From Escherichia phage E26, in the sequence record MN655998.1: a stretch of DNA of 64,000 nt; one strand, 5' to 3'. This document shows, piece after piece, positions 8,801 to 58,663 of the stretch. Numbering within the stretch: position 1 is the first letter of the stretch; each line of letters starts with the position of its first letter. The notes below the pieces were generated by a model. It saw nothing but the letters and a program-made list of their open reading frames with translations. It did no database searches and was not told the origin of the DNA. The position numbers were made by a program, and so were the translations under genes.

Positions 8801-8927
8801 TCCACTGTTTGACCAGTCGGCGGTAACATTCTCTATGTTCCGTGAACTTGTAGATAAACGGTTGAAGGATAATATAGGGAATCCACGCGATCCGAAGAAT
8901 CCGACACAGAGGAAAATTAATGGCTAA
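5841..8927 (+). CDS. 7: baseplate wedge protein gp7
   Basis: 1028 aa, size and position as T4 gp7 (1032 aa); start overlaps gp6 stop. Confidence 0.85.
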   Translation: MIKAPSVTSLTIEKLSANQAYITWDDVGENFFYFVELAETRTRDGEIIPVDELSWVNLGYTAEQNWFEDKNLFPEYYYKFRVAVAAEGFEQSKWVETEEFQTFKTNAYNFSMMREFNLANEFIKEKFTYDNREYVKFNTDLIQASLMKEDFVFSPEYANMTNISNYIVVDENFHEIQDHIEKVCIDINRTMLAEMNGVLYLFERFQPIVKVSNDKGQSWKAYKAFNDRVGNPVSRTCVYQSKTTTYVLGYDRIFYGRQASDTRWSADDVRFSDDTITFAKVGDENDLGFDVEVFGVFSRLTGDTTKYAEAMACSDDYLWVGAKDVIRRIRLKNTPVDTVQGSPTFGEKIFDPDVIRVTGNDKAVIQKMDVIDGKLLVFVTGEVKQRYQDPTKPENVVPSDDAGVYLIGSDGLSFQRVFGNTPQEREYIQHGFSNMSTNGDEVFISHYNHHFESILPDPETAAKYELGEAVKYSQEPTYLTDKKIHQTTFRASYDDLRIWELGPQAYYNEADYTWMRRNGVRVWITNDNRPLVVYPEVIYTQEVDTSGILDQNRVNREVYDKGTVTCYLNNVKFEGFKQYASGVMFHKNTGEIIGFYQFNYRVRDQVGVYWKPTNVAFVAELQNQVREVPWVPVHYDREQDPDLRPLLNKMTPDSFLLENENFRKFSEYYLQFLSDGSGTYYNKLKNLIKNKYPREQDAYEYLWSEMNKRNIYADKNKRDAVVRFFESRKSDFYSTKGVEASYKFLFKLLYNEDVEIEVESQAGLEYDIVVSSTNIDEDIVGRTIYTPTGRANVTYLEREYEGGRLRWRVTIHNLIGRFEEGQVIKSEKTAFEGMILVGVRGKELLSSSIDYINRSRSQYTMKIKSALPVSRYANDVMRFVHPVGFGFIGVTLLTMFINSGLSMKHTETIIQSLKNYKFDSGLPSVYPDRVADLDVDGNIKKDPLTGKALYLTSPLIGEEFPVPPEYDQENSELFHGLKASERRFAMSPLFDQSAVTFSMFRELVDKRLKDNIGNPRDPKNPTQRKING

Positions 8928-9915
8928 TGAAAATAGTGTGATCTATCGCTCAATCATTACTAGTAAATTCAGAACGGAAAAACTTCTGAATTTCTATAAT
9001 TCTGTAGGCGATGAGGCAAATCAAATTACAATTTATGGAACGTTTGGACGTTCGGAGCCGTGGTCAGAAAACGAAAAAGAGGTGGGCTTTGCCCCACCTT
9101 ATCCGACCGATTCAACGGCTGGTGTTGTTGACATGTGGACCCATATGATGGGGGCGGTTAAGATTAACAAATCACTTCTTGATGCGGTTATCCCTCGTAA
9201 AGATTGGGGTGATACCGGACAGGATAACCCGCGCACATTCTTTATCAATGACATTGTTGTTGTCAACTCAGCACCATATAACCGAACTGATGTTGGTAGC
9301 GGCTGGATGGTGTATCGCGTAACCGATGTTCCTGATCGCGGTTACTGCTCGATTTCAAGCATTGATGCTAAAGTAGAGTGTTTGAAGTTGGGCGGAAAGT
9401 GGACCCCCACTCATGAATCAATTGCGCCACCTGTAGGAAAGGGCGATTCTATTGATATGGGTGATGGGTATCGTTGGGAATATCTGTACACAATTCCACC
9501 TGATGCGGCGATCAACCGTTGCACCAATGAACATATTGTTGTACCGTTCCCCGATGAACTGCGACAAGATCCGGCGCGTTGGGGCTATGACAATGTGATC
9601 ACCTGGTATAATGACTATAATCTGCTTTATCGGCTGAAAGTAGTAACTTTGCGTTTTCAGGCTTATATGGACTCTGCGCAATTCCCAACTACCGCGTTAG
9701 TGGGTAATACTGGTTTCCGTCAGTTAAGCATTATCCTTAACCCATTGGAAAAGAAAGCACGCCCTAGCGATCCAGACGTTAAAGCGGTTAACGATAAGTA
9801 CCGACCGCAAGACTTAGAGCCACACTCAGGAGAAATGATCTACATGGAAAACCGACAACCTATCGTTCGGTCATTAGATCAAACAGAACTTGTTTCTGTA
9901 TTGTTTGAGTTCTAA
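8920..9915 (+). CDS. 8: baseplate wedge protein gp8
   Basis: 331 aa; T4 gp8-like throughout (FGRSEPWS, GEMIYMENR). Confidence 0.88.
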   Translation: MANENSVIYRSIITSKFRTEKLLNFYNSVGDEANQITIYGTFGRSEPWSENEKEVGFAPPYPTDSTAGVVDMWTHMMGAVKINKSLLDAVIPRKDWGDTGQDNPRTFFINDIVVVNSAPYNRTDVGSGWMVYRVTDVPDRGYCSISSIDAKVECLKLGGKWTPTHESIAPPVGKGDSIDMGDGYRWEYLYTIPPDAAINRCTNEHIVVPFPDELRQDPARWGYDNVITWYNDYNLLYRLKVVTLRFQAYMDSAQFPTTALVGNTGFRQLSIILNPLEKKARPSDPDVKAVNDKYRPQDLEPHSGEMIYMENRQPIVRSLDQTELVSVLFEF

Positions 9916-9930
9916 GTGTATGATTTAAAA

Positions 9931-9957
9931 AGCCAATTCGAGAGAGTTGGCTTTTTC
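9931..9957 (+). terminator. rho-independent terminator after gene 8
   Basis: AGCCAA / TTGGCT stem with 10-nt loop followed by TTTTT. Confidence 0.6.
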
Positions 9958-9968
9958 TATTTTGGGTG

Positions 9969-9997
9969 TTGACAGTCTTGTCTGGTAAAGGTATAAT
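9969..9997 (+). promoter_or_regulatory. sigma70-type (early) promoter for the inserted methyltransferase cassette
   Basis: TTGACA, 17-bp spacer, TATAAT; about 30 nt upstream of the 10027 ATG. Confidence 0.65.
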
Positions 9998-10026
9998 GCT
10001 CACATCTAAACAACGGAGGATAAATT

Positions 10027-10284
10027 ATGGCACGTCGTAAATTTACAGATAATTGTGAAGCAATTCAGGTATCCCCTTGCGGTTGGGATGTGATCGCGAA
10101 CGGTGAAAAGATCGGCGAGATCATCGATCATACTCATTCATCACTAGCCGATTACACCGATGAACTATGGGAGGGTATCAACTTCATGAATGACACTAAA
10201 CGATTCAAGACTATCGACGAAGCTATCTATTTTGTGTATAATCCAACTTTCGGTATGTGGGGAACTAGAAAATGGCACGCGTAA
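10027..10284 (+). CDS. hypothetical protein (cassette gene 1)
   Basis: 85-aa ORF with GGAGGA RBS; no recognisable motif. Confidence 0.5.
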   Translation: MARRKFTDNCEAIQVSPCGWDVIANGEKIGEIIDHTHSSLADYTDELWEGINFMNDTKRFKTIDEAIYFVYNPTFGMWGTRKWHA

Positions 10285-10601
10285 ATATTAAATTGCATTA
10301 CACAATGGGTAAACCAAAACATCCAATGCATAAAGTGTTTTGGGGCTTGCATCTTCAAGAAAAATGGCATGATAACTATTGGTTTTGTGACCATGATAAG
10401 AAGTGGCATTCTCAAGATGAAGTTAATGCGATGATGGAACAGGGTATAAAATTTAATTACTCTAATTATGACCATAGCATTACTTGTATTCGAAAATTGA
10501 AACGGTTTATTCGAAAGAATCCGCAATTTAAAAACTTTGTGTTCTTTATGTCTCATGTTTATTTGGGGCATAGCGTTACAGTAACAGCAAAGGTTAAATA
10601 A
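10272..10601 (+). CDS. hypothetical His/Trp-rich protein (cassette gene 2)
   Basis: 109-aa ORF overlapping neighbours at both ends (coupled). Confidence 0.45.
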   Translation: MARVNIKLHYTMGKPKHPMHKVFWGLHLQEKWHDNYWFCDHDKKWHSQDEVNAMMEQGIKFNYSNYDHSITCIRKLKRFIRKNPQFKNFVFFMSHVYLGHSVTVTAKVK

Positions 10602-11440
10602 TGGCACGACTTTCTAAACAAGAACAAAAATTACACGATCGGGTGATGGAGTTGATTAATTCAGATCGCCCATTGACATATGAAGAAAAAGAATTTTGCT
10701 ATAATAACTATCATGGCGATGGGCTAGGTGGTTCCGGTGCATTCTTTACCCCAGAAGGGCTTGCATGGGATTTTACCATCGATGCACATTGCACAGGAAA
10801 AGTATTAGATCTTTGTGCTGGGATCGGTCGCTTATCTTTTTGTATGTTACATCGTTGTAAGTCAGAAAAGATCGTATGCGTCGAACTCAATCCAGAATTT
10901 GCGCGGATTGGCAAGCGACTATTACCGGAAGCAGAATGGATCACCAGCGATGTATTCGAATTTGAGTCAAACGAAAAATTCGATGTTGTAATTAGCAATC
11001 CACCTTTCGGGAAAATCAATACAACCGACACAAAGGATGTATTTGAGTACACTGGCGGCGAATTTGAATTTAAGGTTATGACGCTAGGGCAAAAGTTTGC
11101 CGATGTTGGCTATTTTATTGTTCCTGTGGGTTCCGCTGGTTTTGCTTATTCCGGCAGACCTTATTATGACGGGACCATGAAGTCTAATAAATATCTAAAA
11201 TGGAGCAAACAAACTGGTTTGGTGACTTATGCCGGATGTGGGATCGATACATCAATCTATCGCGATGAATGGCACAGTACCAACGTTTTAACAGAAGTGG
11301 TTGAGGTTCGGTATTACGAGAAAGAAGCCGTAGAAGCGCCTAAATCGCGTCCTAACAAACAAATAGAAGAAAGTAAGGAGATTACCTTACCGAAACAGGA
11401 AAGCGAGTCTGGGACGCTCTCAGATTTGTTTGGCATTTAA
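10601..11440 (+). CDS. putative DNA N6-adenine methyltransferase
   Basis: 279 aa; AdoMet motif I VLDLCAGIGRL followed by catalytic NPPF; unlike T4 Dam in sequence. Confidence 0.7.
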   Translation: MARLSKQEQKLHDRVMELINSDRPLTYEEKEFCYNNYHGDGLGGSGAFFTPEGLAWDFTIDAHCTGKVLDLCAGIGRLSFCMLHRCKSEKIVCVELNPEFARIGKRLLPEAEWITSDVFEFESNEKFDVVISNPPFGKINTTDTKDVFEYTGGEFEFKVMTLGQKFADVGYFIVPVGSAGFAYSGRPYYDGTMKSNKYLKWSKQTGLVTYAGCGIDTSIYRDEWHSTNVLTEVVEVRYYEKEAVEAPKSRPNKQIEESKEITLPKQESESGTLSDLFGI

Positions 11441-11444
11441 TTAT

Positions 11445-11470
11445 AAGCCGTCCTTGTGGGCGGCTTTTTT
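11445..11470 (+). terminator. rho-independent terminator after the methyltransferase gene
   Basis: AAGCCG / CGGCTT stem followed by TTTTTT. Confidence 0.6.
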
Positions 11471-11480
11471 GTATGTATTT

Positions 11481-11488
11481 TATAAATA
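11481..11488 (+). promoter_or_regulatory. T4-type late promoter box (TATAAATA) for gene 9
   Basis: exact TATAAATA 27 nt upstream of the gp9 ATG. Confidence 0.6.
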
Positions 11489-11515: not shown

Positions 11516-12370
11516 ATGGCACAAGTTCCAAAGAAAAGAATAGACACCGGTACTGTCGGCAATCCATCGACTGGCGATATCTTATATGATGGCGGCAATA
11601 AAATTAACGATAACTTTGATTCAATATATGACGCATTTGCTGATCAGCGGTTTAAAGACGTAGACCACGGTGTGGGAAGAATGGTTATTCATGCAACCGG
11701 ATACTATCAGAAGCATCCACGTCAAAGCTACGCGGGTTCCGCTGTTGAGATTGGGAGTCTACACGATATCGATACAACTCAAGGCGCACTTATTGCTATT
11801 CTACCTAAAGCAAAGGTCGGCGAGGGTGTTGTATTCATAAATAGTAACGGTAGCCTTTCAACGACGACACCGCTCAATATTCGAACTCAAGCAGGTGATT
11901 CTATTAGCGGTTATTCCGGTGATGCTACAATAACACAACCATTTTCAAAAGTCACTGTTTGGTGTACTGCCGTTGAAGGTAGTCGCGTAACGTGGCGATT
12001 GGGTATCGAAAGTATGTTTACCGATACAACAACGCCATTAGATAAAACAGTTAACGTAACTGGAGTAGCAACAAACGTTGCTATTGCCGCAAAAACAGAA
12101 TACGTTTCCATCAAATTATTAACTACCGCTAGCAATACATCCGGTTCAAAAATGCGTTCAAGTGAAACGCTACTGATGATTGATTCTAAAGCCGGAAAAG
12201 TTTATGCGACGGAATATGCAGTTTTGCAGAAGACAGAAGATGAACTATACATGGTTCGTTATTTCATCGGTTCCGGCGATAAAGTATATGCAGAGTATAA
12301 GGCTACTGGCGAAAATATTCGTTTAGCAGTTAAAGCCGTAGACACTATTAAAATCGGGGTTGCTACATGA
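11516..12370 (+). CDS. 9: baseplate wedge / long tail fiber socket protein gp9
   Basis: 284 aa; N-terminal GDILYDGGNKIN motif as in T4 gp9. Confidence 0.85.
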   Translation: MAQVPKKRIDTGTVGNPSTGDILYDGGNKINDNFDSIYDAFADQRFKDVDHGVGRMVIHATGYYQKHPRQSYAGSAVEIGSLHDIDTTQGALIAILPKAKVGEGVVFINSNGSLSTTTPLNIRTQAGDSISGYSGDATITQPFSKVTVWCTAVEGSRVTWRLGIESMFTDTTTPLDKTVNVTGVATNVAIAAKTEYVSIKLLTTASNTSGSKMRSSETLLMIDSKAGKVYATEYAVLQKTEDELYMVRYFIGSGDKVYAEYKATGENIRLAVKAVDTIKIGVAT

Positions 12371-19036: not shown

Positions 19037-19933
19037 ATGAATCATTATGTGTATAAAATAACCAACAAATTAAATGGTAAAATCTATATCGGCGTCCGTA
19101 GCTGTGATTGCGATATCGACAAAGATCCTTATATGGGTAGTGGGGTATTAATTAAAAAAGCTATCCATACTCATGGAGTTGAAAATTTTCACAAAGAAAT
19201 TCTCGAAACATTTGAAACAAGAGAAGAAGCTAATCAAGAAGAAGCCAGATTAGTGACACTAGATTTTGTTAACCGACAAGACACATACAATCTAATTGAA
19301 GGTGGTCTGGGTGGTTGCTACTGGAATACATTTTCAGAAGAAAAAAAGGAAGAGATCAAGAACAAATTAAGACAACATAAACCAGATCCAGAACAATTAA
19401 GAAAATTACATGAATCAAATAGAGGCGTTCCGCGTTCGGAAGAGACTAAATTGAAAGTTAGCCGAGCAAATAAAGGAAGAATCCACACGGAGCAGTCAAG
19501 AAAAAACATGTCCGAAGGGCGAAAAGGTATGGTGTTTTCAGAAGAACACAGAAAAAATATATCAAAAGCAAATGTAGGACGTGTACATTCTCCAGAAACA
19601 TTGGAAAAAATAAGATTAGGGAATTTAGGAAAAAAATTAAAACCAGAAACAATAGAAAAACTAAGAGAGGTTGCCAAGAATCGTCCTCCTGTCTCAGAAG
19701 AAACAAGAAGAAAACTATCAGAGGCAGCAAAGAAACAAATAAGAAACTTCGGGGATAAAATAAGTAAAGGGAAAATAGATAAACCTATATCAACGAGCAA
19801 AACAGTGTATGCGGAAGGTGTTGAATATCCTTCTGTTAGTGTTTGTGCAAGGGCATATGGGATTTCAAACACATCAATATTGAAGAGAATTAATTCAACG
19901 TCAGAAAAATGGAAGGAGTTTTATTATGTTTGA
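19037..19933 (+). CDS. GIY-YIG homing endonuclease (Seg-like)
   Basis: 298 aa from ATG with AGGAG RBS; GIY-YIG core [14 protein letters not shown]; repeated NUMOD3-like basic motifs; C-terminal HTH-like tail. ORF-track start at 18956 rejected (inside gp13). Confidence 0.8.
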
Positions 19934-20666
19934 TAATACCCTATTTGCTCGCCTTGAATCGCAAAAGGATTATGAGAATACACGACAATCAGAGATTCTT
20001 AATCCTTATGTGAACTTTCACAAATATACAAATACTCAGACGTTAGCCGACGTTATGGTCGCCGAAGCTATTCAGATGCGAGGTGTAGAATTATATTACA
20101 TCCCTCGTGAATTTGTCAAACCAGACATGATCTTTGGCGAGGATGTTCAAAGCAAATTTACTAAAGCATGGAAATTTGCTGCTTATATTAACTCATTTGA
20201 TGGGTATGAAGGCGCGGGTAATTTCTTCTCTAGTTTCGGTTATCAAGCCAATGATGAACTAACTTTTACGGTTAATCCTAACCTATTCAAACATCAAGTA
20301 GATGATCAAGAGCCAAAATCAGGTGACTTGATTTATATTCCAATGAGTAATGATTTATTTGAAATCAATTACGTCGAGCCATATCAGCCGTTTTTTCAGG
20401 CTGGCAAAAATGCCATGCGTAAAATTATTGCAGAGAAATTCGTATATAGCGGCGAGGAATTGCGACCAGAATTACAACGCAATGAGGGAATTAATGTTGA
20501 TGAGTTTGCGGATCTGGATCTTGCACCGATCACTAATCTGGACGGGTTAACAGATATCAACTTAGATCAGTACAAAGAAGATAAGCAATTCAGAAGCGAA
20601 GGACAAGATTTTATTGATCCGTTTGATCCTATTAATGGCAAGGGTTCACCTTTCGCCGATTTTTGA
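19926..20666 (+). CDS. 14: neck protein gp14
   Basis: 246 aa; position and size as T4 gp14. Confidence 0.8.
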
Positions 20667-52051: not shown

Positions 52052-52112
52052 GTTTGATTCTCCTTTCGTTTCGGTATGTGTGCATTATAGGGGATCACCG
52101 ATCCCCTGTCAA
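52052..52112 (-). promoter_or_regulatory. PeSL-like cassette b
   Basis: TTGACA, palindromic 17-bp spacer GGGGATCGGTGATCCCC (two GATC sites), TATAAT, conserved leader; -35 overlaps the end of the DUF262 gene. Confidence 0.6.
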
Positions 52113-52640
52113 CAACTTTTTTGAATTATTTTTTAATTGCTCATCTTGTAATAGAGCAATAACATGCTGGCGATGTTCTTCCGATTGAGGCACACCGAAA
52201 AAGTTTGTTTTGTAGAAATATTCTAATCGATCTTCTCGTGTGCTCTCTTCCATCATGATCGCGGGTAGTCCGAGATTTCGGAAACGTCGCTTTTCTGCTG
52301 GCGTAAAATCACTGTAATACAACATAGAATCATCATTACCAGCAATGCTAAACTCATCTTTCATAAAGGAGAATATTGCGTTTAAACGCTGTTTACCGTC
52401 CACGATTTCGATCTCATAGCGAGAGCCATCATCAATCTTAGCCATTGCGATAGCACCAACCGGAAAATCATTAATCAGGTTTTCGATAAACATACGTTTG
52501 TTTTCGGTGTCCCATACCAAAGGACGCTGATAATCTGGGTTCATGTTGATATAGCCATCTTCTAACCACGCCTCATAAACAGAGATGACAAAGTTTTTAG
52601 TATTGGTATAGTAACGGCGTTTAGGCGTTAAACGGTTCAT
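52095..52640 (-). CDS. DUF262 / ParB-like nuclease-domain protein (GmrSD N-terminal-domain-like)
   Basis: 181 aa from ATG (MNRL, AGGAGA RBS); motifs DYQRPLVW and DGKQRL; ORF-track start at 52676 is TTG. Confidence 0.6.
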   Translation of the reverse strand: MNRLTPKRRYYTNTKNFVISVYEAWLEDGYINMNPDYQRPLVWDTENKRMFIENLINDFPVGAIAMAKIDDGSRYEIEIVDGKQRLNAIFSFMKDEFSIAGNDDSMLYYSDFTPAEKRRFRNLGLPAIMMEESTREDRLEYFYKTNFFGVPQSEEHRQHVIALLQDEQLKNNSKKLLTGDR

Positions 52641-52641
52641 G

Positions 52642-52971
52642 TTATAGTCTCCTGAATGGATCATCACGTAAATCAATATCTTTTAAGAACTCATCCCATG
52701 AATGGCGGATATTGTTCTTAATTCTCCAGATAAGCGCAGGGATTGAACGCTCTCCCATCTGGAAGTAAGGATCATATGATCCATATGCCCAATATGCTAC
52801 TACAATTCCACAATCAGCGCAATAATATTCTATTTCACTTGCTGGCGACCAAAGTCCATCAATATGATCGGTGATCCTGCTTTCGATGTTATGGCTATGG
52901 CAATCAGGGCAACGGATGCAATGACCTTGTTTATCGTAATTTGACGTTAGCGAATACTTAAACAATCTCAT
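52642..52971 (-). CDS. Zn-ribbon protein
   Basis: 109 aa; CxxC..H and CxxC pairs (CIRCPDCHSH, CADCG); start overlaps upstream stop by 1 nt. Confidence 0.5.
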   Translation of the reverse strand: MRLFKYSLTSNYDKQGHCIRCPDCHSHNIESRITDHIDGLWSPASEIEYYCADCGIVVAYWAYGSYDPYFQMGERSIPALIWRIKNNIRHSWDEFLKDIDLRDDPFRRL

Positions 52972-53687
52972 TATAGATCCTTATTTGCTTCAAATACTGC
53001 CTTTGCGAATCCTCGCGGGGTAAGTGACCTTATAGTCTTTGTTTTCGTTCCTTTCCCGCCTAGCTTAGAATGCTGTTTACTGTACCCTTTATTAATCTGC
53101 AACGGTTTCTTTTCTGGCATTATAAAGCCTTGTCCGGTCCATAAGCAAGTCCTTTTCGGGTACATATCACGGGCGGCAATATACTCAGGAAAAGTAGGAT
53201 GTTTATCATCTTCCGGCAAATAACCGCCATATTCCCACGGATGGAACATATAATCAGGCTTACGCCACATGCTAGAGATAACGCTTACAGGATTCTCTAT
53301 CATGTAGGGAACTCCTAGCCATTCACCCAAATAAGCGGTTATTTTAGCTGCCCGTACATCATGAACTTGAATCAATGGTCCTTGCTCTCGTTTCTTTCGT
53401 TCAAAGTGTGCAGCGCCACTAACAGCTAAATTGGTGCACGGTGGGAATGCAAATATAATATCCGGTTTCCCCCATTCAAGGTCCATTGCTCTTTCTAGCC
53501 AGTTCAAATCAATCCATGTGTTTACATATGTAATGTTTGGATGTTCAAATCGGGTATTATATTTTTTGTATGTACCGTGGTCGCCATCGTCAGCATTAAA
53601 GCAGATCACCTTATGACCTGCTTTAGCCCATTCTAACCCCATTATCCCCGATCCGTCAAAGTTGCAGAATATTAATTTTTGTTTCAC
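52971..53687 (-). CDS. compact DNA (cytosine-5)-methyltransferase-like protein
   Basis: 238 aa; motif I FDGSG, PC motif FPPCTNLAVSG, ENV-like MIENPV; GTG start overlapping upstream TGA with GGGGG as RBS. Confidence 0.5.
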   Translation of the reverse strand: MKQKLIFCNFDGSGIMGLEWAKAGHKVICFNADDGDHGTYKKYNTRFEHPNITYVNTWIDLNWLERAMDLEWGKPDIIFAFPPCTNLAVSGAAHFERKKREQGPLIQVHDVRAAKITAYLGEWLGVPYMIENPVSVISSMWRKPDYMFHPWEYGGYLPEDDKHPTFPEYIAARDMYPKRTCLWTGQGFIMPEKKPLQINKGYSKQHSKLGGKGTKTKTIRSLTPRGFAKAVFEANKDL

Positions 53688-53935
53688 GCTGCCCCCATTG
53701 GTTTGATAGTAACAGAATCTAAAAGACCTTTGTTAGCCAGTTCGCGGCAAGTTTTCAGATCCGCAACTTCCCAGCCAGCCGCAATCAGGTTATCAATCAG
53801 GCTGTTAGCAATTTCTTCGCTCATGAAAGAGCACTGTTTGCCGATGGTGTAGCGTACACGCTGTAATTTCAGTTTACGGAAGCCTTTAACGTTCAGGTCT
53901 TTAGCGATTTTCTTTGCGGTTTCGATGTTAGCCAT
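53684..53935 (-). CDS. hypothetical protein (83 aa), first gene of the operon
   Basis: ORF with cassette leader RBS. Confidence 0.5.
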   Translation of the reverse strand: MANIETAKKIAKDLNVKGFRKLKLQRVRYTIGKQCSFMSEEIANSLIDNLIAAGWEVADLKTCRELANKGLLDSVTIKPMGAA

Positions 53936-57454: not shown

Positions 57455-57518
57455 TTTTGATTCTCCTATATCTCGTTGGTATGTGTGTATTATAGGGGAT
57501 CTCCCGATCCCCTGTCAA
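57455..57518 (-). promoter_or_regulatory. PeSL-like cassette i
   Basis: TTGACA, spacer GGGGATCGGGAGATCCCC, TATAAT, leader. Confidence 0.6.
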
Positions 57519-58599: not shown

Positions 58600-58663
58600 A
58601 ATTGATTCTCCTAGTTCGTTTCGGTATGTGTGTATTATAGGGGAGTTTAGCCTCCCCTGTCAA
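58600..58663 (-). promoter_or_regulatory. PeSL-like cassette j
   Basis: TTGACA, spacer GGGGAGGCTAAACTCCCC, TATAAT, leader. Confidence 0.6.

Follow-up and report, generated by a model that had tools for sequence, protein, structure and literature searches.

In the genomes of the phages RB49 and phi1, about 50 promoter-early stem-loop (PeSL) elements each have been described, in which a strong sigma70 promoter together with a stem-loop terminator lies 5' of ORFans (Arbiol et al. 2010, PMC2839356). The few PeSLs found within the virion module block the spill of early transcription into late genes (Arbiol et al. 2010, PMC2839356). In RB49, the sole early promoter predicted between 60.7 and 98.4 kb of the genome, Pe:73830 (Nolan et al. 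2006), heads a small cassette between the late baseplate genes 8 and 9. Here we analyze this cassette in Escherichia phage E26 (MN655998.1), of which a stretch of 64,000 nucleotides, called the window in the following, was available. The cassette encodes two small proteins and a methyltransferase (MTase) of 279 aa, and the C-terminal tail of the latter closely resembles that of the DNA polymerase gp43 of RB49.

Tails of this kind are well described for the partners of replicative sliding clamps. In T4, the peptide 889-EKASLDFLFG-898 of gp43 binds the sliding clamp gp45. Like gp43, both gp55 and gp33 bind gp45 through hydrophobic-acidic C-termini, and the three tails can replace one another. 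In gp55, the clamp epitope follows an unstructured linker, the same pattern of conserved tail and variable linker as found here. In T4 DNA ligase, the loop that binds gp45 was recognized by its similarity to the gp43 tail and then confirmed by isothermal titration calorimetry and a crystal structure. For the bacterial beta clamp, the binding consensus is QL[S/D]LF, usually at the C-terminus. In our literature search, the described gp45 partners included no methyltransferase, and no clamp-binding motif was reported on a phage or bacterial MTase; the coverage of this search is incomplete and does not prove novelty. The polymerase-like tail appears to be unreported so far.

Results

A polymerase-like tail at the C-terminus of the methyltransferase

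The window derives from a Krischvirus (RB49-like, Straboviridae). Its MTase ends in TLSDLFGI, that of RB49 and GEC-3S in TLSDLFDI (...GTLSDLFDI), and the RB49 DNA polymerase gp43 in ...EKVASLTDLFDI (ASLTDLFDI), which is the positional equivalent of residues 889-898 of T4 gp43. The last 8 residues of the 618 RB49 open reading frames (ORFs) of at least 40 aa were scored against the gp43 tail. gp43 itself reached a score of 39 and the MTase 32, followed by 19 for the next best ORF. The pattern [ST]L[ST]DLF is present in two of the 618 ORFs, namely gp43 and the MTase, in each case at position -8. At the DNA level, the last 14 nt of the MTase gene are identical to those of gene 43, three of the five codons upstream differ synonymously and nothing matches past the stop codon. 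Since codons differ synonymously and no similarity is shared past the stop, the resemblance is one of the proteins and not a recent recombination tract; a recombination scar from the PeSL-flanked gene 43 was ruled out on the same grounds.

The tail is separated from the catalytic domain by a disordered linker rich in Glu, Lys, Ser and Pro (Table 1). Among Krischvirus isolates, this linker varies (PKQESESG, PEQETASG and PEDKSPSG) with the tail unchanged, and in chromosomal bacterial homologs the linker is missing. Thus, as in the known T4 gp45 partners, the peptide of the MTase is hydrophobic and acidic, occupies the extreme C-terminus behind a variable unstructured linker and comes close to the tail of the cognate polymerase.

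Because the tail of the MTase copies the clamp-binding tail of gp43, docking on the clamp is suggested. We somewhat favor, with moderate confidence, the reading that the protein is a clamp-tethered, co-replicational orphan N6-adenine DNA MTase, encoded in a PeSL-type cassette that has become fixed in Krischvirus. Host RNA polymerase would produce the MTase early in infection. After the onset of replication, the enzyme would dock via its tail on loaded gp45 sliding clamps and, once docked, would processively methylate adenines at N6 in nascent or newly replicated phage DNA. This methylation might shield the phage genome against restriction by the host or serve as a self-mark.

Two further C-terminal features of RB49 were noticed. 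The DNA ligase gp30 (L013 24126-25622) ends in ...TVKEVFDV and, with a score of 19, ranks third in the genome in similarity to the gp43 tail; the T4 ligase, by contrast, uses an internal loop to bind gp45. Furthermore, the last codons of gene 43, TTT GAC ATT (FDI), contain the TTGACA -35 box of a downstream early promoter, so that clamp tail and promoter element share nucleotides at the 3' end of the gene (L006 15776-15803).

Clamp-type tails across the methyltransferase family

A profile search of 1.84 billion representative sequences returned 1078 members of the family to which the MTase belongs (phrog_3820). The 145 best members with a complete domain were taken, 93 of which have tails of at least 10 aa. 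Within the last 12 residues, Q-x-x-L-F occurs in 23 of these 93. In 1000 shuffles of the tails, it occurred in 0.06 on average and in 2 at most, and it is absent from 2926 windows of the catalytic domains. The dipeptide LF is found in 47 of the 93 tails, with 4.1 expected. The motif usually forms the very end of the protein or stands 3-5 residues before it, and the Q-x-x-L-F tails match the beta-clamp consensus QL[S/D]LF.

The examined members with such beta-type tails all belong to elements that are replicated by the host replisome. P0119 (...QQLDLFGEAA) belongs to a lambdoid phage, where its gene has the O/P replication genes on one side and ninB on the other; P0187 is encoded on a plasmid-like contig with ParA, ParB and relaxase genes, P0130 beside other orphan DNA MTases on an integrase/relaxase element, i.e. 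an integrative and conjugative element (ICE), and P0268 on a genomic island. Chromosomal copies of enterobacteria, e.g. on an island of Citrobacter freundii, have no tail. In T4-like members, other tails are found: TLSDLFDI in Krischvirus, TLTDLFDI, TLDFVDFSEI and SLSMFDI, respectively, in the Krischvirus-like metagenomic lineages L037 (P0002), L015 (P0003) and L036 (P0004), and (D/E)LFTF(T/R)IE in the Pseudotevenvirus and Slopekvirus type. With beta-type tails in host-replicated elements and T4-type tails in T4-like members, the type of the tail therefore follows the type of the clamp.

These data would also allow a more general reading, to which we give about as much credence as to its opposite: phrog_3820 may represent widespread orphan DNA adenine MTases of mobile elements that ride on the sliding clamp, with the tail being exchanged to match the clamp of the respective element. 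Lambdoid phages, plasmids and ICEs would use a tail of the QL[SD]LF type, suited to the beta clamp of the host, and T4-like phages a polymerase-mimicking tail of the gp45 type.

A different architecture is present in jumbo phages of the Salmondvirus type (Dickeya phage JA11, L021 1501-2670; also L034 and L035), where the MTase domain continues into another C-terminal domain, about 140 aa in length. The JA11-type fused MTase has no clamp-type tail and adjoins another DNA adenine methylase gene; the double-MTase fusions of L034 and L035 are uninformative for tail covariation.

The catalytic domain

In Pfam, the MTase scores above the cut-offs of MTS, Methyltransf_25 and Eco57I, and AlphaFold2 predicts residues 1-240 as a confident domain with a mean predicted local distance difference test (pLDDT) value of 85. 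An earlier note, made from the letters of this DNA without database searches, had pointed out the amino-MTase motifs DLCAGIGRL and NPPF. Both are present and intact, and a motif X, FFTP, which that note did not list, can be added. Among 37 homologs, G46, A47, F49, T50 and P51 of the extended motif X (GAFFTP, aa 46-51) are invariant and F48 nearly so. Likewise invariant are C72, A73, G74, I75 and G76 of motif I and N133, P134, F136 and G137 of motif IV, in which P135 is nearly invariant. Because motifs X, I and IV are conserved in this way, the MTase is not degenerate. We regard it as an orphan gamma-class amino-MTase, most probably an N6-adenine DNA MTase.

It differs from the known gamma-class N6-adenine DNA MTases (M.TaqI, HsdM, M.BseCI, the Eco57I family), to which it is just 14-19% identical, in that its MTase domain ends at about residue 240 and neither a target-recognition domain (TRD), according to the AlphaFold2 model and the fold search, nor a partner S subunit is recognizable. 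The suggestion of the earlier note that the enzyme does not resemble T4 Dam holds as well. RB49 has a separate T4-type dam gene elsewhere in its genome. Despite this dam ortholog, a tblastn search with the MTase hits just one place in each Krischvirus genome, and the MTase is therefore not Dam-like. T4 Dam is likewise phage-encoded, lacks a cognate endonuclease and is presumed to serve anti-restriction or self-marking. However, it belongs to a different MTase class without detectable similarity to the cassette enzyme, and Krischvirus has its own Dam ortholog.

A third MTase-like gene is located on the minus strand of the window (52971-53687, 238 aa). It corresponds to RB49p189, contains an FPPC motif of the C5-cytosine type and is coupled to two ORFs of the same minus-strand block (52095-53935), a Cys-rich one of 109 aa (52642-52971) and a DUF262/ParB-nuclease-like one of 193 aa (52095-52676; DYQRPLVW...DGKQRL). 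An unexplained cytosine modification has been reported for Krischvirus SAP but not for the 99.96%-identical TB34 (PMC13390438), and the block may bear on this modification.

Alternative readings of tail and enzyme

Several observations weigh against a clamp-tethered DNA MTase, and they are considered here together with the alternatives. Some of them concern the tail. The tails of Krischvirus gp33 (..PTNTLDI) and gp55 (..SLDQFYEIEN) are unlike the tail common to gp43 and the MTase. In Pseudotevenvirus and Slopekvirus, the MTase tail (..DLFTFTIE) has just the core (N/D)LF in common with that of gp43 (..SLNDLFGDW), so that the covariation is weak. Homologs without a tail exist in the T4-like and jumbo phages Aeromonas 65, CC2, phiM12 and fHe-Yen9-04. 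In scans of IMG/VR, neither the L015 lineage nor its gp43 was recovered for a comparison with the MTase tail.

An ordinary diffusible orphan DNA MTase without a role at the clamp, whose resemblance to gp43 is coincidental or whose tail binds some other partner, would agree with these tailless phage homologs and with the chromosomal ones, all of which work without a tail, as well as with the weak match in Pseudotevenvirus. In addition, the identity of the last 14 nt to gene 43 may reflect some shared ancestry of the very end. Nevertheless, we consider a diffusible enzyme without a role at the clamp unlikely: the motif occurs in two of 618 ORFs and in both at the exact C-terminus, the tail is kept next to a variable linker, and the beta-clamp consensus is independently enriched on other family members (23 of 93, 0.06 expected), of which those examined belong to elements that depend on the host replisome.

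The near-identity of the MTase and polymerase tails would also be expected if the tail acted mainly as a competitor or regulator at the clamp, e.g. in polymerase exchange or in timing the late transcription that depends on gp45, and if methylation were secondary. The tails of gp43, gp55 and gp33 indeed compete for the same sites on the clamp, and early expression from a very strong promoter, as predicted here, would suit such a function. However, the catalytic motifs are invariant family-wide, so that enzyme activity is under selection, and beta-clamp-type tails are also carried by plasmid and ICE members, for which there is no role in late transcription. This makes a mainly regulatory tail very improbable.

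Other observations concern the substrate. At the sequence level, the top matches of the MTase are PH1948/METTL5, RsmC and PrmC, thus RNA and protein MTases, and a DNA substrate is suggested mainly by the tail and the genomic contexts. In the fold search, the best structural neighbors of the model are all enzymes producing N6-methyladenine. They comprise lmo1582 (score 17.5; 207 aligned residues), METTL5 (16.8; 175) and PH1948 (16.4; 173) as well as Type I HsdM, M.BseCI, MmeI and M.TaqI (14.3-15.2; 182-223). The gamma-class DNA MTases are mostly aligned over more residues than METTL5 and PH1948, but judged from the model, the fold search by itself does not separate relatives among DNA MTases from those among RNA MTases.

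Together with the lack of an evident TRD and with the annotation as rRNA-MTase-like or PrmC in RB49 and several other records, these matches would be in line with an early host-takeover function in which the enzyme methylates host RNA or protein, i.e. introduces N6-methyladenosine or N2-methylguanosine into rRNA or tRNA or modifies a release-factor glutamine. The scores argue against this. The PrmC/HemK annotation given in several GenBank records was rejected, as the MTase reaches 38.7 bits compared to a TIGR03534 cut-off of 199.1 and just the Rossmann core aligns; for RsmC, the NCBIfam score is 29.9 with a cut-off of 295. Furthermore, a tail of the clamp-binding type would make no sense on an RNA or protein MTase, and homologs are encoded among lambdoid replication and nin genes and beside DNA MTases and relaxases on mobile elements. 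A non-DNA substrate is therefore rather improbable in our view.

Finally, the anti-restriction role is speculative. The phage also encodes Dam and the third MTase-like gene. The cytosine of RB49-type phages is reported to be unmodified and to lack hypermodification, and for this reason a protective or self-marking role of the clamp-tethered enzyme is possible. Neither a methylome nor enzymology was found for Krischvirus in the literature, the coverage of which was incomplete.

Organization and distribution of the cassette

The cassette is arranged in the order gp8, terminator, sigma70 promoter, ORF85, ORF109, MTase, terminator, late promoter and gp9 (Table 1), and all of these elements, including the coupling of the three genes, were recovered as the earlier note had described them. 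The stem-loop behind gene 8 was not equaled in folding by any of 200 shuffles. It probably ends late transcription from genes 6-8 and would at the same time represent the stem-loop part of a PeSL-type element. The promoter is one of 8 perfect sigma70 consensus sites in the window, compared to 0.09 expected. Nine of the ten matches to the late box TATAAATA in the window are on the plus (late-gene) strand, and L015 has the same late-promoter arrangement in front of gp9. These signals support the proposed self-contained, sigma70-driven and terminator-bounded module within a late baseplate operon. ORF85 and ORF109 overlap by 13 nt, and the start codon of the MTase lies in a TAATG overlap with ORF109.

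Table 1. Features of the cassette and its flanking genes in the window
Feature	Position	Strand	Remarks
Gene 8, baseplate wedge subunit, left flank, late gene	8920..9915	+	Pfam PF09215 Phage-Gp8, E=2e-143; gp8 in RB49 and GEC-3S annotation
Stem-loop terminator	9927..9956	+	13-bp stem, then T-run; minimum free energy -17.5 kcal/mol; z=-4.8; GEC-3S annotation
Sigma70 early promoter	9969..9997	+	TTGACA-17-TATAAT, 12/12 match; -35 9969-9974, -10 9992-9997; GEC-3S annotation
GGAGG	10015-10019	+	upstream of ORF85
ORF85, ORFan (phrog_16603), variable cargo	10027..10284	+	85 aa; no Pfam/NCBIfam match
ORF109, His/Trp-rich ORFan (phrog_12630), variable cargo	10272..10601	+	109 aa; no Pfam match
MTase, 279 aa	10601..11440	+	phrog_3820, E=5.9e-117
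MTase catalytic domain, aa 1-240, gamma-type amino-MTase	10601..11320	+	motifs X, I, IV
Motif X FFTP	10742-10753	+	MTase aa 48-51
Motif I DLCAGIGRL	10808-10834	+	MTase aa 70-78
Motif IV NPPF	10997-11008	+	MTase aa 133-136
Disordered Glu/Lys/Ser/Pro-rich linker, MTase aa 241-271	11321..11413	+	AlphaFold2 pLDDT <50 at aa 248-269
C-terminal peptide TLSDLFGI, putative gp45 clamp-binding motif	11414..11437	+	mimics gp43 tail
Intrinsic terminator closing the cassette	11445..11466	+	9-bp GC-rich stem, then T6; z=-4.1; GEC-3S annotation
T4-type late promoter box TATAAATA for gene 9	11481..11488	+	exact match, 28 nt 5' of gp9 ATG
Gene 9, baseplate wedge / tail-fibre connector, right flank, late gene	11516..12370	+	Pfam T4_gp9_10_N, E=1.4e-40

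The region of 3.4 kb around the cassette is matched by 57 complete Krischvirus genomes at 96-99.5% identity, with Phage ELT4 being the best match, and every Krischvirus record carries the cassette at the 8/9 junction. Tulanevirus, Pseudotevenvirus and T2 are without it, and genes 8 and 9 are directly adjacent there, with gaps of just 63 bp in T2, 9 bp in Aeromonas phage AS-gz and 10 bp in RB16. The absence of genes at this position, which the earlier note had presumed for T4, therefore holds for T4-type phages. Since the two genes abut in these three phages, the cassette is an insertion specific to the Krischvirus lineage. As circumstances that would speak against its proposal, the earlier note had named a cassette conserved in all relatives with an inactive MTase. 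The cassette is indeed conserved across Krischvirus, but so are the catalytic motifs of the MTase across the family, which does not fit an inactive enzyme.

Two records deviate from the general picture. In vB_EcoM_Skers (MW748999 13405-15222), codons 1-65 of the MTase are fused in frame to the large terminase, and genes 9-16 are missing. This fusion almost certainly represents an artefact of the assembly in a record deposited as a 'complete genome', and a natural deletion of the cassette was therefore rejected. In the RB49 record (AY343333 73902-74148), ORF85 is split into ORF140w and ORF141w. A single intact ORF of 85 aa is found at this place in all other Krischvirus genomes, and the split is likely a sequencing frameshift in the record from 2003.

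Much of this organization can be found in existing annotations. The GenBank record of GEC-3S has terminator, promoter and terminator at exactly the same places, and the RB49 record lists the cassette genes as ORF140w-143w, with ORF143w noted as methyltransferase-like. Like a PeSL, the cassette has a sigma70-consensus promoter beside a stable stem-loop directly 5' of an ORFan and is transcriptionally insulated. It differs in the stem, which in typical PeSLs is a GGGG...CCCC stem between the promoter boxes, as at 52, 57 and 58 kb of the window, but here consists of AAAAAGCCAA...TTGGCTTTTT with an A/T-flanked GCCAA upstream of the -35 box. Further differences are a downstream border made of a plain terminator and a late promoter instead of a second PeSL, so that the PeSLs on both sides that would permit excision as a mini-circle are not found, and the fixation in all Krischvirus genomes, in contrast to the variable PeSL units. 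The cassette also has the hallmarks of a moron, namely its own promoter and terminator between flanking genes that are adjacent in related phages; expression from a prophage is not applicable to this strictly lytic phage. Thus, the description as a moron-like early cassette in the earlier note is correct, but this kind of element is not new: the cassette is an ordinary PeSL-type early module within a late operon, as already published.

Textbook PeSLs are present on the minus strand of the hyperplastic region (52084-52112, 57489-57518 and 58634-58663). Another perfect sigma70 consensus (TTGACA-18-TATAAT, 20090-20119) is located on the minus strand within the block of late neck and tail genes, where a plus-strand ORF of 246 aa (19926-20666) starts. 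From its sequence, it is a possible antisense early promoter.

The two small genes

Searches of ORF85 and ORF109 in Pfam, NCBIfam and PHROG gave PHROGs without function only, and among 5.8e9 proteins the two are found in one and five clusters, respectively. The AlphaFold2 model of ORF109 (pLDDT 53) was unusable, and no fold search was made with it. In Krischvirus, ORF109 is present in two alleles, which compared to the copy in the window are about 99% (RB49/GEC-3S type) and about 73% (Phi1/JSE type) identical, with the neighboring genes remaining 96-100% identical. A third version with about 70% identity is encoded in rV5-like Vequintaviruses. At the sequence level, this dimorphism indicates a recent horizontal exchange of a single ORFan.

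The earlier note had considered the small genes as possible specificity or regulatory partners of the MTase. In favor of such subunits, all Krischvirus genomes show translational coupling of the three genes, the MTase has no obvious TRD of its own, and two small ORFs also precede the homolog of Pseudotevenvirus and Slopekvirus. The distribution of the genes largely refutes the proposal. In three diverged Krischvirus-like metagenomic lineages, L015, L036 and L037, the MTase is found at the same gp8/gp9 junction (in L015 with identities of 88% for gp8, 77% for gp9 and 62% for the MTase), alone in L015 and L037 and behind an unrelated ORF of 154 aa in L036. ORF85 is missing from these three cassettes; it is found in Krischvirus and in three Vequintavirus records. 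Conversely, in the rV5-like Vequintavirus FV3, ORF85 and ORF109 are adjacent without an MTase. The small ORFs in front of the Pseudotevenvirus and Slopekvirus homologs, which are encoded in the early 41-61 region, fall into other PHROG families. Finally, many Krischvirus genomes carry the 73%-identical allele of ORF109 next to an MTase that stays 96-99% identical. We therefore see hardly any probability left for ORF85 or ORF109 as subunits. Rather, the MTase is the constant element of the cassette, and ORF85 and ORF109 represent exchangeable ORFan cargo that probably joined it later.

Discussion

As far as can be judged from sequence data, the interest of the cassette lies in the clamp-type tail, a feature that the earlier note had not mentioned. 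The tail would combine an orphan phage MTase with the sliding-clamp tool-belt. If confirmed, the list of proteins known to bind the T4-type sliding clamp would gain a DNA methyltransferase, and by extension so would that of the bacterial beta clamp. It would also become understandable how phages, plasmids and ICEs that lack hypermodified bases could methylate their DNA quickly enough to outrun restriction, namely by coupling modification to replication. The family would furthermore provide a natural example of the swapping of clamp motifs between replisome types, and its short, portable module of peptide plus linker could serve as a tether in engineered systems.

If the reading is true, the enzymes would be a prokaryotic and viral counterpart of DNMT1-PCNA: an incoming or fast-replicating element would have each new duplex methylated before it meets the restriction enzymes of the host, and in Krischvirus this could also allow self-marking of a genome with unmodified cytosine. 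The likeness to DNMT1 and PCNA consists in a DNA MTase with a clamp-interaction motif that is targeted to newly replicated DNA. However, DNMT1 is a C5-cytosine MTase with an N-terminal PCNA-interacting peptide (PIP) box and is not homologous to the enzyme of the cassette, which is an amino-MTase encoded by a mobile element and carries its motif at the C-terminus.

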